From positions 8,866,001 to 8,930,000 of the forward strand of contig OX597824.1 of assembly GCA_951406725.2 (NCBI GenBank): a stretch of DNA of 64,000 bases. The letters are read 5' to 3'. A program made the position numbers and the translations under genes. Each line of letters opens with the position of its first letter. The stretch's first letter is position 1. This document shows, one piece after another, positions 29,206 to 45,056 of this stretch. The DNA is from Octopus vulgaris (taxonomy: Eukaryota). The notes below the pieces were generated by a model. The model was given only the letters and a program-made list of their open reading frames with translations. It made no database searches and had not been told where the DNA came from.

Positions 29206-29692
29206 AAGGCGGCGAGCTGGCAGAATGCTTAGCGGTATTTCGTCTGTGTTTACGTTCTGAGTTCAAATTCTGCCGAGCTCGACTTTGCCTTTCAATCTTT
29301 CGGGGTCGATAAATTAAGGACCAGTTACGTACTGGAGTAGATGTAATCGACATAATCCGTTTGTCTGTCCTTGTTTGTCCTCTCTGTGTTTAGCCCCTTG
29401 TGGGTAATAAAGAAATAGGTATTTCATCTGTGTTTACGTTCTGAGTTCAAATTCTGCCGAGCTCGACTTTGCCTTTCATTCTTTCGGGGTCTATAAATTA
29501 AGTACCAGTTACGCACTGGGGTCGATGTAATCGACTTAATCCGTTTGTCTGTCCTTGTTTGTCCTCTCTGTGTTTAGCCCCTTGTGGGTAGTAAAGAAAT
29601 AGGCACTTCGTCCATCATAGTTTTGAGTTCAAATTCCATCGAGATCGACTTTCTCTTCTATTCTTTCGGCGTCGATAAAATAAGCACCAGTT
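29206..29692 (+). mobile_element. SINE family C with internal 184-bp tandem repetition (~2.5 units)
   Basis: Units start at 29234, 29418 and 29602. Confidence 0.85.
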
Positions 29693-35271: not shown

Positions 35272-35318
<47 letters not shown>

Positions 35319-35322
<4 letters not shown>

Positions 35323-35510
35323 TTAATTAATAAGGGTGAGAGAATTAGATACTAATTTAATAGTATATTTATTCCACACCAAGTGGCCTAGTGCTACGAG
35401 AAACCTGGATTATTATAATATTTTATAACATATTATAATATTTTCACAAAATAAATATAAGAGAGTGTTCACTATATTGATCACTCTAGCACCAGTTAAT
35501 CCAAGAGGTT
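35319..35510 (-). repeat. Inverted partial copy of the 535-bp unit
   Basis: Reverse complement of 35900-36091; no differences seen by eye. Confidence 0.95.
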
Positions 35511-35720
35511 ACTATTAAATTAGTATCTAATTCTCTCACCCTTATTAATTAATTATAATTATGCTGCATTTATTTCTAAATGCTGTATTTGTTTTTCCGT
35601 GAGAGTTTGGCGCGCTGTTGGTTGGGGCATTTGAATTATAACGTCCGATGTAATCAATTGAACCGCACGCGTAATTATCGTTATGGTAAAATCTGGCGTG
35701 TGATTGAGTGGATTTCATCA

Positions 35721-35812
35721 AGATAGCCTTGGCTGAAGAGCTACAAATGGATTACTGTAAGTAATATTACATTTAATTCATTAATAGCGAAACAATTGTC
35801 CCAAGATAATCT
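35721..35812 (+). ncRNA. Type I hammerhead ribozyme, copy 1
   Basis: Stem I cttgg (35728-32)/ccaag (35801-05), extended by agat/atct across an internal loop. Core CTGAAGA 35733-39; stem II gcta/tagc with a long hairpin; GAAA 35789-92; palindromic stem III ACAATTGT; GUC cleavage after 35800. Confidence 0.88.
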
Positions 35813-36255
35813 GTATTTTTGTTATTTTTTATTTGCCCTGTCCGTGTGAACTAACAGTCGTACCGGCTTTCATGGGAAACATATATTTTTCGTGGTTGAA
35901 ACCTCTTGGATTAACTGGTGCTAGAGTGATCAATATAGTGAACACTCTCTTATATTTATTTTGTGAAAATATTATAATATGTTATAAAATATTATAATAA
36001 TCCAGGTTTCTCGTAGCACTAGGCCACTTGGTGTGGAATAAATATACTATTAAATTAGTATCTAATTCTCTCACCCTTATTAATTAATTATAATTATGCT
36101 GCATTTATTTCTAAATGCTGTATTTGTTTTTCCGTGAGAGTTTGGCGCGCTGTTGGTTGGGGCATTTGAATTATAACGTCCGATGTAATCAATTGAACCG
36201 CACGCGTAATTATCGTTATGGTAAAATCTGGCGTGTGATTGAGTGGATTTCATCA

Positions 36256-36347
36256 AGATAGCCTTGGCTGAAGAGCTACAAATGGATTACTGTAAGTAAT
36301 ATTACATTTAATTCATTAATAGCGAAACAATTGTCCCAAGATAATCT
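36256..36347 (+). ncRNA. Type I hammerhead ribozyme, copy 2
   Basis: Same as copy 1; cleavage after 36335. Confidence 0.88.
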
Positions 36348-36790
36348 GTATTTTTGTTATTTTTTATTTGCCCTGTCCGTGTGAACTAACAGTCGTACCG
36401 GCTTTCATGGGAAACATATATTTTTCGTGGTTGAAACCTCTTGGATTAACTGGTGCTAGAGTGATCAATATAGTGAACACTCTCTTATATTTATTTTGTG
36501 AAAATATTATAATATGTTATAAAATATTATAATAATCCAGGTTTCTCGTAGCACTAGGCCACTTGGTGTGGAATAAATATACTATTAAATTAGTATCTAA
36601 TTCTCTCACCCTTATTAATTAATTATAATTATGCTGCATTTATTTCTAAATGCTGTATTTGTTTTTCCGTGAGAGTTTGGCGCGCTGTTGGTTGGGGCAT
36701 TTGAATTATAACGTCCGATGTAATCAATTGAACCGCACGCGTAATTATCGTTATGGTAAAATCTGGCGTGTGATTGAGTGGATTTCATCA

Positions 36791-36882
36791 AGATAGCCTT
36801 GGCTGAAGAGCTACAAATGGATTACTGTAAGTAATATTACATTTAATTCATTAATAGCGAAACAATTGTCCCAAGATAATCT
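36791..36882 (+). ncRNA. Type I hammerhead ribozyme, copy 3
   Basis: Same as copy 1; cleavage after 36870. Confidence 0.88.
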
Positions 36883-37325
36883 GTATTTTTGTTATTTTTT
36901 ATTTGCCCTGTCCGTGTGAACTAACAGTCGTACCGGCTTTCATGGGAAACATATATTTTTCGTGGTTGAAACCTCTTGGATTAACTGGTGCTAGAGTGAT
37001 CAATATAGTGAACACTCTCTTATATTTATTTTGTGAAAATATTATAATATGTTATAAAATATTATAATAATCCAGGTTTCTCGTAGCACTAGGCCACTTG
37101 GTGTGGAATAAATATACTATTAAATTAGTATCTAATTCTCTCACCCTTATTAATTAATTATAATTATGCTGCATTTATTTCTAAATGCTGTATTTGTTTT
37201 TCCGTGAGAGTTTGGCGCGCTGTTGGTTGGGGCATTTGAATTATAACGTCCGATGTAATCAATTGAACCGCACGCGTAATTATCGTTATGGTAAAATCTG
37301 GCGTGTGATTGAGTGGATTTCATCA

Positions 37326-37417
37326 AGATAGCCTTGGCTGAAGAGCTACAAATGGATTACTGTAAGTAATATTACATTTAATTCATTAATAGCGAAACAA
37401 TTGTCCCAAGATAATCT
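37326..37417 (+). ncRNA. Type I hammerhead ribozyme, copy 4
   Basis: Same as copy 1; cleavage after 37405. Confidence 0.88.
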
Positions 37418-37860
37418 GTATTTTTGTTATTTTTTATTTGCCCTGTCCGTGTGAACTAACAGTCGTACCGGCTTTCATGGGAAACATATATTTTTCGTGG
37501 TTGAAACCTCTTGGATTAACTGGTGCTAGAGTGATCAATATAGTGAACACTCTCTTATATTTATTTTGTGAAAATATTATAATATGTTATAAAATATTAT
37601 AATAATCCAGGTTTCTCGTAGCACTAGGCCACTTGGTGTGGAATAAATATACTATTAAATTAGTATCTAATTCTCTCACCCTTATTAATTAATTATAATT
37701 ATGCTGCATTTATTTCTAAATGCTGTATTTGTTTTTCCGTGAGAGTTTGGCGCGCTGTTGGTTGGGGCATTTGAATTATAACGTCCGATGTAATCAATTG
37801 AACCGCACGCGTAATTATCGTTATGGTAAAATCTGGCGTGTGATTGAGTGGATTTCATCA

Positions 37861-37952
37861 AGATAGCCTTGGCTGAAGAGCTACAAATGGATTACTGTAA
37901 GTAATATTACATTTAATTCATTAATAGCGAAACAATTGTCCCAAGATAATCT
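37861..37952 (+). ncRNA. Type I hammerhead ribozyme, copy 5
   Basis: Same as copy 1; cleavage after 37940. Confidence 0.88.
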
Positions 37953-38395
37953 GTATTTTTGTTATTTTTTATTTGCCCTGTCCGTGTGAACTAACAGTCG
38001 TACCGGCTTTCATGGGAAACATATATTTTTCGTGGTTGAAACCTCTTGGATTAACTGGTGCTAGAGTGATCAATATAGTGAACACTCTCTTATATTTATT
38101 TTGTGAAAATATTATAATATGTTATAAAATATTATAATAATCCAGGTTTCTCGTAGCACTAGGCCACTTGGTGTGGAATAAATATACTATTAAATTAGTA
38201 TCTAATTCTCTCACCCTTATTAATTAATTATAATTATGCTGCATTTATTTCTAAATGCTGTATTTGTTTTTCCGTGAGAGTTTGGCGCGCTGTTGGTTGG
38301 GGCATTTGAATTATAACGTCCGATGTAATCAATTGAACCGCACGCGTAATTATCGTTATGGTAAAATCTGGCGTGTGATTGAGTGGATTTCATCA

Positions 38396-38487
38396 AGATA
38401 GCCTTGGCTGAAGAGCTACAAATGGATTACTGTAAGTAATATTACATTTAATTCATTAATAGCGAAACAATTGTCCCAAGATAATCT
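38396..38487 (+). ncRNA. Type I hammerhead ribozyme, copy 6
   Basis: Same as copy 1; cleavage after 38475. Confidence 0.88.
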
Positions 38488-38930
38488 GTATTTTTGTTAT
38501 TTTTTATTTGCCCTGTCCGTGTGAACTAACAGTCGTACCGGCTTTCATGGGAAACATATATTTTTCGTGGTTGAAACCTCTTGGATTAACTGGTGCTAGA
38601 GTGATCAATATAGTGAACACTCTCTTATATTTATTTTGTGAAAATATTATAATATGTTATAAAATATTATAATAATCCAGGTTTCTCGTAGCACTAGGCC
38701 ACTTGGTGTGGAATAAATATACTATTAAATTAGTATCTAATTCTCTCACCCTTATTAATTAATTATAATTATGCTGCATTTATTTCTAAATGCTGTATTT
38801 GTTTTTCCGTGAGAGTTTGGCGCGCTGTTGGTTGGGGCATTTGAATTATAACGTCCGATGTAATCAATTGAACCGCACGCGTAATTATCGTTATGGTAAA
38901 ATCTGGCGTGTGATTGAGTGGATTTCATCA

Positions 38931-39022
38931 AGATAGCCTTGGCTGAAGAGCTACAAATGGATTACTGTAAGTAATATTACATTTAATTCATTAATAGCGA
39001 AACAATTGTCCCAAGATAATCT
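38931..39022 (+). ncRNA. Type I hammerhead ribozyme, copy 7
   Basis: Same as copy 1; cleavage after 39010. Confidence 0.88.
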
Positions 39023-39465
39023 GTATTTTTGTTATTTTTTATTTGCCCTGTCCGTGTGAACTAACAGTCGTACCGGCTTTCATGGGAAACATATATTTTT
39101 CGTGGTTGAAACCTCTTGGATTAACTGGTGCTAGAGTGATCAATATAGTGAACACTCTCTTATATTTATTTTGTGAAAATATTATAATATGTTATAAAAT
39201 ATTATAATAATCCAGGTTTCTCGTAGCACTAGGCCACTTGGTGTGGAATAAATATACTATTAAATTAGTATCTAATTCTCTCACCCTTATTAATTAATTA
39301 TAATTATGCTGCATTTATTTCTAAATGCTGTATTTGTTTTTCCGTGAGAGTTTGGCGCGCTGTTGGTTGGGGCATTTGAATTATAACGTCCGATGTAATC
39401 AATTGAACCGCACGCGTAATTATCGTTATGGTAAAATCTGGCGTGTGATTGAGTGGATTTCATCA

Positions 39466-39557
39466 AGATAGCCTTGGCTGAAGAGCTACAAATGGATTAC
39501 TGTAAGTAATATTACATTTAATTCATTAATAGCGAAACAATTGTCCCAAGATAATCT
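39466..39557 (+). ncRNA. Type I hammerhead ribozyme, copy 8
   Basis: Same as copy 1; cleavage after 39545. Confidence 0.88.
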
Positions 39558-40000
39558 GTATTTTTGTTATTTTTTATTTGCCCTGTCCGTGTGAACTAAC
39601 AGTCGTACCGGCTTTCATGGGAAACATATATTTTTCGTGGTTGAAACCTCTTGGATTAACTGGTGCTAGAGTGATCAATATAGTGAACACTCTCTTATAT
39701 TTATTTTGTGAAAATATTATAATATGTTATAAAATATTATAATAATCCAGGTTTCTCGTAGCACTAGGCCACTTGGTGTGGAATAAATATACTATTAAAT
39801 TAGTATCTAATTCTCTCACCCTTATTAATTAATTATAATTATGCTGCATTTATTTCTAAATGCTGTATTTGTTTTTCCGTGAGAGTTTGGCGCGCTGTTG
39901 GTTGGGGCATTTGAATTATAACGTCCGATGTAATCAATTGAACCGCACGCGTAATTATCGTTATGGTAAAATCTGGCGTGTGATTGAGTGGATTTCATCA

Positions 40001-40092
40001 AGATAGCCTTGGCTGAAGAGCTACAAATGGATTACTGTAAGTAATATTACATTTAATTCATTAATAGCGAAACAATTGTCCCAAGATAATCT
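40001..40092 (+). ncRNA. Type I hammerhead ribozyme, copy 9
   Basis: Same as copy 1; cleavage after 40080. Confidence 0.88.
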
Positions 40093-40535
40093 GTATTTTT
40101 GTTATTTTTTATTTGCCCTGTCCGTGTGAACTAACAGTCGTACCGGCTTTCATGGGAAACATATATTTTTCGTGGTTGAAACCTCTTGGATTAACTGGTG
40201 CTAGAGTGATCAATATAGTGAACACTCTCTTATATTTATTTTGTGAAAATATTATAATATGTTATAAAATATTATAATAATCCAGGTTTCTCGTAGCACT
40301 AGGCCACTTGGTGTGGAATAAATATACTATTAAATTAGTATCTAATTCTCTCACCCTTATTAATTAATTATAATTATGCTGCATTTATTTCTAAATGCTG
40401 TATTTGTTTTTCCGTGAGAGTTTGGCGCGCTGTTGGTTGGGGCATTTGAATTATAACGTCCGATGTAATCAATTGAACCGCACGCGTAATTATCGTTATG
40501 GTAAAATCTGGCGTGTGATTGAGTGGATTTCATCA

Positions 40536-40627
40536 AGATAGCCTTGGCTGAAGAGCTACAAATGGATTACTGTAAGTAATATTACATTTAATTCATTAAT
40601 AGCGAAACAATTGTCCCAAGATAATCT
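40536..40627 (+). ncRNA. Type I hammerhead ribozyme, copy 10
   Basis: Same as copy 1; cleavage after 40615. Confidence 0.88.
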
Positions 40628-40859
40628 GTATTTTTGTTATTTTTTATTTGCCCTGTCCGTGTGAACTAACAGTCGTACCGGCTTTCATGGGAAACATATA
40701 TTTTTCGTGGTTGAAACCTCTTGGATTAACTGGTGCTAGAGTGATCAATATAGTGAACACTCTCTTATATTTATTATATTATATATATATATATATATAT
40801 ACATACAAACATACATGTACACACACACACACACAGACACACGCACACATATATTCTGT

Positions 40860-44264: not shown

Positions 44265-45056
44265 AGCATCTACACGCCGACATTTTGCGACATTTAATCC
44301 GTCTTTTTAGCCCCTTGTGGGCAGTAAAGAAATAGGTATTTCGTCTGCCGCTATGTTCTGAGTTCAAATTCCGCCGAGGTCGACTTTGCCTTTCATCCTT
44401 TTCGGGTCGATAGATTAAGTACCAGTTAAGCACTGGGTTCGATATAATCGACTTAATCCATTTGTCTGTCCTTGTTTGTTCTCTCTGTGTTTAGCCCCTT
44501 GTGGGTAGTAAAGAAATAGGTATTTCGTCTGCCGCTATGTTCTGAGTTCAAATTCCGCCGAGGTCGACTTTGCCTTTCATCCTTTCGGGTCGATAGATTA
44601 AGTACCAGTTAAGCACTGGGTTCGATATAATCGACTTAATCCATTTGTCTGTCCTTGTTTGTTCTCTCTGTGTTTAGCCCCTTGTGGGTAGTAAAGAAAT
44701 AGGTATTTCGTCTGCCGCTATGTTCTGAGTTCAAATTCCGCCGAGGTCGACTTTGCCTTTCATCCTTTCGGGTCGATAGATTAAGTACCAGTTAAGCACT
44801 GGGTTCGATATAATCGACTTAATCCATTTGTCTGTCCTTGTTTGTTCTCTCTGTGTTTAGCCCCTTGTGGGTAGTTAAAAAATAGGTATTTCGTCTGTCG
44901 CTACGTTCTGAGTTCAAATTCCGCCGAGGTCGACTTTGCCTTTCATTCTTTCAAGGTTGATAAATCATGTACCAGTTGCGTACTGGAGTTGATCTAATCG
45001 ACACCCCCCCCGCTCCCCCAAAATTTCAGGCTTTGTGCCTAGAGTAGAAGAGAATA
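44265..45056 (+). mobile_element. SINE family C tandem array (three full 183-184-bp units plus flanking partials)
   Basis: Units start at 44335, 44519, 44702 and 44885; the last unit ends in an alternative tail (ccccaaaatttcaggctttgtgcctagagtagaag). Confidence 0.9.

Follow-up and report, generated by a model that had tools for sequence, protein, structure and literature searches.

Two described systems lie close to the repeat reported here. The first is the metazoan non-LTR retrozymes, whose mobiliser and copying route have been proposed but remain unproven (PMC7229834; bioRxiv 10.64898/2026.07.22.740005). The second is the EN+ group of Penelope-like elements (PLEs), whose insertions bear a tail of 30–40 bp, often at one end only (PMC8557442, PMC3846280). 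PMC8557442 lists the origin of tandem and inverted PLE insertions among the open questions; PMC3846280 attributes head-to-head junctions to self-priming, with the template in antisense. In vitro, a PLE from Anolis, for which a dimer has been modelled, cuts both target strands and extends them, and its reverse transcription starts at two internal sites, one at either boundary of the tail (PMC11167929). These accounts, and the comparisons drawn from them below, reflect the accessible parts of the respective papers.

The window, a stretch of 64,000 nucleotides from Octopus vulgaris contig OX597824.1, contains a 5,457-bp element (35319-40775) built of two arms that meet head to head (Table 1). The forward arm of 5,266 bp is an array with a period of 535 bp and zero mismatches from one unit to the next. 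The inverted arm of 192 bp, whose outer end we call the long (L) end, overlaps the start of the array by one base and matches its counterpart within the array at 192/192 positions, with no extension on either side; chance is ruled out as the source of this match. The first-pass annotation, which lacked the hammerhead and the two-site end rule described below, had given the inverted copy abutting the array, and its coordinates proved exact (0/192 mismatches). So did its 47-bp stem and 144-nt loop: 35319-35365 and 35510-35556 are exactly reverse-complementary, with 35366-35509 intervening. The stem owes its existence to the start of the forward arm 47 nt ahead of the L end; we rejected a self-priming function for it and regard it as incidental. 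The annotated (TA)n on both flanks was likewise present, as runs of 32 and 22 nt outside the element ends, and within this TA repeat a target-site duplication is neither visible nor excludable. [quoted passage not shown] Elsewhere in the window, 29234-29692 and 44306-45002 hold tandem copies of a SINE-like repeat of ~184 bp that is unrelated to the retrozyme element.

Table 1. Features of the element and its flanks in window coordinates (unit position 1 is window position 35511).
Feature	Position	Strand	Basis or remark
Left (TA)n target flank	35272..35318	.	TRF TA array 35272-35321; 32-nt TA run beyond end
Inverted arm of 192 bp, spanning unit positions 390 to 46	35319..35510	-	Exact reverse complement of 35900-36091
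~131-nt 'tail', S (unit 450-452) to L (unit 46-47), this end only	35319..35448	-	End histogram
Conserved motif and terminal hairpin within tail, inverted copy	35333..35391	-	
Head-to-head arm junction, 1 nt (T) microhomology	35510..35510	.	
Forward arm, 9.84 identical 535-bp units, ends at short (S) site, unit 450	35510..40775	+	
Type I hammerhead motif, first of ten (each unit has one)	35728..35805	+	Read from sequence
Motif CTAGGCCAC(T)TGGT, then hairpin closed by ACC, 14-15 nt before L site	36019..36077	+	
Right (TA)n target flank, TA run preceded by ATAT and an additional T	40776..40800	.	

In the first hammerhead motif, stem I pairs 35728-35732 with 35801-35805, the core consists of CUGAAGA (35733-35739) and GAAA (35789-35792), stem II carries a 41-nt structured loop, stem III has two pairs and a palindromic loop, and cleavage is predicted after 35800, which corresponds to unit position 290. 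Animal hammerheads that act as dimers in tandem repeats typically have a weak helix III with palindromic sequence (PMC4209133). For a 96-nt segment, the fold constrained to the hammerhead reached −18.0 kcal/mol versus −19.4 kcal/mol for the free fold, which places the active fold 1.4 kcal/mol above the minimum, and the AT-rich monomer folded better than its shuffles (z −7.1). An Rfam scan did not detect the hammerhead with its long loop; a match to MIR6217, at 30.9 bits versus a cut-off of 110, was rejected as a chance hairpin. Across 41–43 loci the 12 core positions showed one substitution, at one locus, while free position 7 varied (A 31, G 3, C 7). Shared variants occupied 0/12 core positions versus 50/535 unit-wide, an invariance that is consistent with function but is not significant. 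We found no PLE protein match inside the arrays (78 sequences), and the element, which lacks a reverse transcriptase (RT) plus GIY-YIG reading frame, is not an autonomous PLE. Its units are tandem and non-coding, each holds a type I hammerhead, and they occur at many dispersed loci; by this anatomy the unit is a non-LTR retrozyme as that class is characterised in the accessible text of PMC7229834 and bioRxiv 10.64898/2026.07.22.740005.

We searched 2.8 Gb of genome in 227 contigs. Scoring of 40 candidates from a search with the unit yielded at least 280 matches. An exact pattern of end plus TA matched 918 times genome-wide versus 0 for its control, which puts the number of insertions at 918 or more. 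Two sets of loci were analysed. Set 1 comprised all loci among the 150 matches listed and was thus chosen by homology (38 loci including the window, 37 with flanks). Set 2 comprised 39 of the first 41 L-end matches on contig C1, the other two being already in set 1, together with one region holding two matches, for 41 L ends; a first S-end pattern was too specific (11 matches) and was not used for counts. The contig without flanks, L034 (G000:C120, 6,501 bp), was left out of all end counts: this entire unplaced contig consists of the repeat, ~12 units, and ends two bases beyond the predicted cleavage site. Because the genome is very rich in microsatellites, the TA flanks required a control, and we found a TA run after 61/65 outer 3′ ends at the 37 set 1 loci versus 1,685/18,500 random flank positions (9.1%). 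Several loci have peculiarities of their own. The left arm and flank are the same at L040 and L046 (G000:C4 near 160.91 and 160.93 Mb), which are separated by 14 kb, and one of the two contains an assembly gap; they may be a local duplication or an assembly duplicate and so may represent one event. At L031:2240-2740 and in blocks of L035 and L045, unit copies are mixed with TA or strongly degraded, probably through sequencing or polishing noise. Runs X3, X5, X9 and X19, labelled as two other organisms, contain 40–55% of the stretch's words, and related species likely carry the retrozyme family.

The outer ends of set 1 fell at two sites of the unit, with 30/65 at positions 41-47 (site L) and 29/65 at positions 449-454 (site S); the remaining six lay at 19, 22, 438, 445, 479 and 482. 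Sites L and S are ~131 nt apart on the unit, and by analogy this interval is the counterpart of the PLE tail. Two head-to-head arms were present at 28/37 set 1 loci, the other nine being single-armed (6 L, 3 S). When a degraded end at 19 was scored as L and an end at 438 as S, 26 of the 28 two-armed loci paired L with S, two paired S with an end at 479-482, and none was L/L or S/S. In set 2, 26 of the 41 L ends had an S partner arm (22 by script, and four short or merged loci by eye) and none an L partner, the remainder being 14 single L ends and one L end joined to an autonomous PLE fragment. Together, the two sets contain 54 two-armed loci, of which 52 have one arm at each site and 0 are homotypic. 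The copies thus combine an inverted, 5′-truncated arm beside a partial tandem, a one-sided tail and a TA target, which is the integration signature of EN+ PLEs. The earlier reading of the window as a Penelope-like integration therefore holds: its copies are dispersed, TA-flanked and mostly two-armed, with two fixed ends like those of a PLE tail and a PLE-type hammerhead, and the inversions and TA flanks that the first-pass annotation proposed to look for in other copies both recur. The inverted piece that it placed at the 5′ edge of the array is real, but it is not an edge fragment; it is a full second arm with the long 3′ end.

Could the inversion at 35510 be a fold-back chimera of assembly or library? 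Among the pieces listed from public contigs of five runs, none bridged the junction with 31 letters on both sides, as a chimera would predict, but other individuals may lack the copy. A chimera would mirror adjacent sequence, whereas here the inner ends of the arms lie 144 nt apart on the unit; moreover, the outer end of one arm coincides with the L site, in TA, and that of the other with S, a combination shared with 51 further loci. We consider an artefact of this kind barely credible.

The tail holds a short motif and a hairpin that extend beyond this family. A pattern for the sister-variant motif matched 2,357 times in the genome (control 0), and the tail motif recurs in otherwise divergent repeats, sister families included, several of which have long-loop hammerheads of their own. 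With the ends held fixed, the stretch from GGT to ACC folds as a hairpin in 23 distinct sequences (median z −3.3; 21/23 below −1.5), whose hairpins differ in sequence and length; in the window element's own unit z is −3.8. The motif and hairpin lie ~15 nt before the L end and may recruit or position the RT. We also hand-picked 20 loci with rarer variants. In 10 of them an inverted arm terminates at the equivalent of site S, and at another the end lies further upstream; one more, L277, forms an L/L palindrome. The latter (L277:2860-3380, in a sister family) is centred on a natural hairpin, is an exception to the pairing rule and is likely a fold-back product. At the junction of L041, a 29-nt piece comprising the conserved motif and TA is repeated three times, which suggests repeated re-priming at the motif.

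Both arms of a locus come from one template: own-arm divergence averaged 0.4% versus 2.5% to other loci; 39/41 loci were below the median, with L045 and L093 as exceptions, and 7/48 loci with fewer than 100 shared sites were left out. After omission of five noisy or complex loci, 43 loci remained. Their variants comprised 146 that were locus-fixed in every unit of the two arms, 57 singletons and 4 that were partly shared inside one arm; 0 were shared in register between arms. This pattern fits one-step copying of a homogeneous template rather than gradual growth. It bears on the possibility that a satellite grew in place by unequal crossover and was later inverted locally, for which the perfect 535-bp tandem array speaks, as does the local amplification proposed for pLTR-derived retrozymes in the accessible text of bioRxiv 10.64898/2026.07.22.740005. 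Such growth is at odds with hundreds of dispersed loci that have fixed ends and TA flanks, with arms that are often both multi-unit, and with the near absence of partly shared variants. A satellite origin of the insertion is thus contradicted and we regard it as extremely improbable, but later gain or loss of units may have occurred. The dispersed copies with their fixed ends and TA flanks instead bear out the annotated preference for retrotransposition.

The geometry of the arms and junctions speaks to how the second arm was primed. Either arm could be the longer one (13 versus 13 in set 1, 15 versus 7 in set 2), and among short two-armed loci the L arm was usually slightly longer. We scored 48 junctions, omitting six very short or complex two-armed loci: 26 showed microhomology (8 with at least 3 nt, 1 with at least 5 nt), 10 were blunt and 12 had inserts. 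Starts of the forward arm were scattered across the unit, and one junction centre (1/48) was a perfect hairpin; L095 is centred on a 12-nt palindrome. Arm stops fell within 50 nt of each other on the unit at 21/48 loci versus 9.1 expected (P = 7e-5), and within 60 nt in absolute terms at 10/48.

These data allow two accounts to be compared. In one, reverse transcription is primed once, at L, the cDNA folds back and primes itself, the second strand stops at S, and the resulting palindromes later lose their centres asymmetrically; long palindromes are known to undergo central deletion. This account is nearest to the route drawn in the first-pass annotation and to the self-priming reading in the accessible text of PMC3846280. 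It directly explains the pairing of one L with one S end and the variants shared between arms, and the correlated arm stops (21/48) and the hairpin-centred loci L277 and L095 agree with it. However, the S arm is the longer one in 20/48 loci, often by many units and in the window by 5,266 to 192, insertions with S alone exist, 47/48 junctions have 4 nt of microhomology or less, and both sites start reverse transcription in vitro (PMC11167929). Self-priming through the 47-bp stem of the window is disfavoured in particular by the 1 nt of microhomology at its junction, by the single perfect hairpin among the 48 junctions and by the finding that either arm can be much longer. Overall we consider fold-back an unlikely general route.

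In the other account, twin target-primed reverse transcription, each target strand primes at one of the two sites, and it is favoured by the greater length of either arm, the lone S ends, the types of junction and the in vitro data on the Anolis PLE. S acts as a start site by itself: 3/9 single-armed set 1 loci end at S without an L arm, and in an autonomous PLE family, here family A, 36 loci have 28 terminal ends of type S and 10 of type L, only three of these loci being head-to-head. The correlated arm stops and the slightly longer L arms of short loci count against twin priming, since fold-back predicts them, and L277 and L095 show that fold-back occurs at times. We nonetheless judge twin priming to be probable.

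The form of the template is a further question. Twin priming could have proceeded on a linear multimeric transcript, or on two sibling RNAs, instead of a monomer circle. Arrays of at least 10 identical units are available as sources for such RNAs, and the ribozyme is dispensable for PLE insertion in vitro (PMC11167929). Variants in register were absent, versus 57 singletons and 4 partly shared, and this points to a homogeneous template, with low power as the arrays are young. A linear or sibling template is in our estimate rather doubtful, and we lean towards a circular template, by reference to this homogeneity and to the published retrozyme cycle.

Together, these observations suggest a model in which the array would be transcribed, cut into 535-nt monomers and probably circularised. 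A PLE dimer would bind the tail motif and hairpin and nick both strands of a (TA)n target, and on the same template the two nicks would prime at different sites, one at L and one at S. Each RT would then travel a variable distance round the template, in the window 192 nt and ~9.8 turns, and host repair would join both cDNA ends head to head. That the retrozyme is mobilised by PLE-type machinery seems to us very likely. The fuller proposal, that a borrowed PLE RT/GIY-YIG enzyme priming from both strands wrote the element into a TA microsatellite in one event, we hold to be fairly probable.

Many GIY-YIG loci exist in the genome, among them a family with intact 781-aa frames for an RT with a C-terminal GIY-YIG, one of which lies at G000:C16 near 20.84 Mb. 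This family has a CX4CxxC motif before the nuclease, a feature that fits the description of Neptune/Nematis in the accessible text of PMC8557442. The intact family ends in TA at two sites ~35 nt apart, and its 35-nt tail is unlike that of the retrozyme in sequence. Head-to-head copies of autonomous PLEs pair both end types, in 4/4 cases for family A, 1/1 for family B and 2/3 for family C, the third being ambiguous; copies of family C are old (~80% alike). We scored 150 of 6,136 GIY-YIG candidates. Against the reading of a borrowed PLE enzyme stands the lack of an autonomous PLE bearing the motif: the tail motif was absent from 80 PLE loci, and no PLE frame lay upstream of the motif in 50 motif loci. 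Further, blastn of the unit against 50 GIY-YIG loci gave no match above noise, a hammerhead pattern search for a partner gave 15 matches (control 2) that were mostly chance or retrozyme variants, and no motif-bearing autonomous element was found among copies of family C, relatives of the PLE beside L211, and 20 further motif loci.

A candidate mobiliser is a PLE family at L139-L154, in which an ORF lies upstream, many 781-aa RT/GIY-YIG frames are intact, the tail measures 35 nt and a minimal hammerhead-like motif is present. At L108:7718-8990 (G000:C1 near 217.405 Mb), a retrozyme L arm lies head to head with a 5′-truncated autonomous PLE, represented by its GIY-YIG end and 3′ region, across a join without TA; this is possibly a mixed-template insertion. 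At L234 (G000:C1:13170000-13179999, minus strand), the L end of a sister retrozyme with an inverted S arm and one unit is followed without a break by a truncated family-A PLE that spans the whole RT/GIY-YIG frame, through a template jump or a nested insertion. Both loci are leads only, and nested insertion can explain the two.

A broader idea can be stated, to which we give somewhat less than an even chance. PLE enzymes may work as an obligately asymmetric dimer, with two RTs per RNA, one for each tail end and target strand, and a whole clan of retrozymes in this genome may recruit that dimer through a shared RNA signal, the fixed 13-nt motif with its covarying hairpin, to be copied by double rolling circle. 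If true, this would explain the head-to-head structure of PLEs in general and would define a transferable cis element with which any small circular RNA could be written, on both strands, into TA repeats.

Retrozymes, their link to PLEs, inverted arms, the one-sided tail and the TA preference are already published. A literature search with incomplete coverage of subscription journals and supplements yielded no paper describing PLE footprints on retrozyme arrays, strict end pairing, PLE twin priming or the shared motif. The gain is therefore one of mechanism rather than a new category, the element class and the one-sided tail being known. With hundreds of near-identical insertions of a young family, a long tail that is easily scored and a shared RNA motif, the origin of head-to-head PLE insertions and the mobilisation of animal retrozymes both become directly testable.

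In LINE-1 twin priming, both target strands prime cDNA on one RNA, which yields an inverted segment with a microhomology junction; the second primer acts at a variable internal site and the segments do not overlap. In the retrozyme, by contrast, neither start varies, and the stretches copied by the two arms overlap and span multiple units. The octopus repeat resembles metazoan non-LTR retrozymes (PMC7229834; bioRxiv 10.64898/2026.07.22.740005) in its tandem non-coding units with one type I hammerhead each, its low GC and its many dispersed loci, and a PLE mobiliser and rolling-circle copying are proposed there. It differs in that the accessible text of those papers describes no head-to-head arms, two fixed ends, TA targeting or shared terminal motif, and in that its loop II is long (41 nt). 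For published retrozymes, cleavage and circles have been demonstrated, whereas for the octopus unit they are a prediction. Li, Clavereau and Pollet 2026 (bioRxiv 10.64898/2026.07.22.740005) tie retrozymes to pLTRs by sequence, and no such partner was found here. With EN+ PLEs (PMC8557442, PMC3846280) it shares the inverted 5′-truncated copy beside a partial tandem, the tail at one end, the (TA)n preference and a hammerhead in the repeat, but it encodes no protein, its tail is ~131 nt rather than 30–40, and the pairing of its ends is now quantified (52/54, none homotypic). It also parallels PAc, the Anolis Poseidon PLE (PMC11167929), in which two internal RT starts bound the tail, both strands are cut and extended, targets are AT-rich and a dimer is predicted. 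In the accessible text on PAc the strands do not differ in start site and head-to-head insertions are not addressed, whereas the octopus genomic pattern implies that the two sites are paired in each event.
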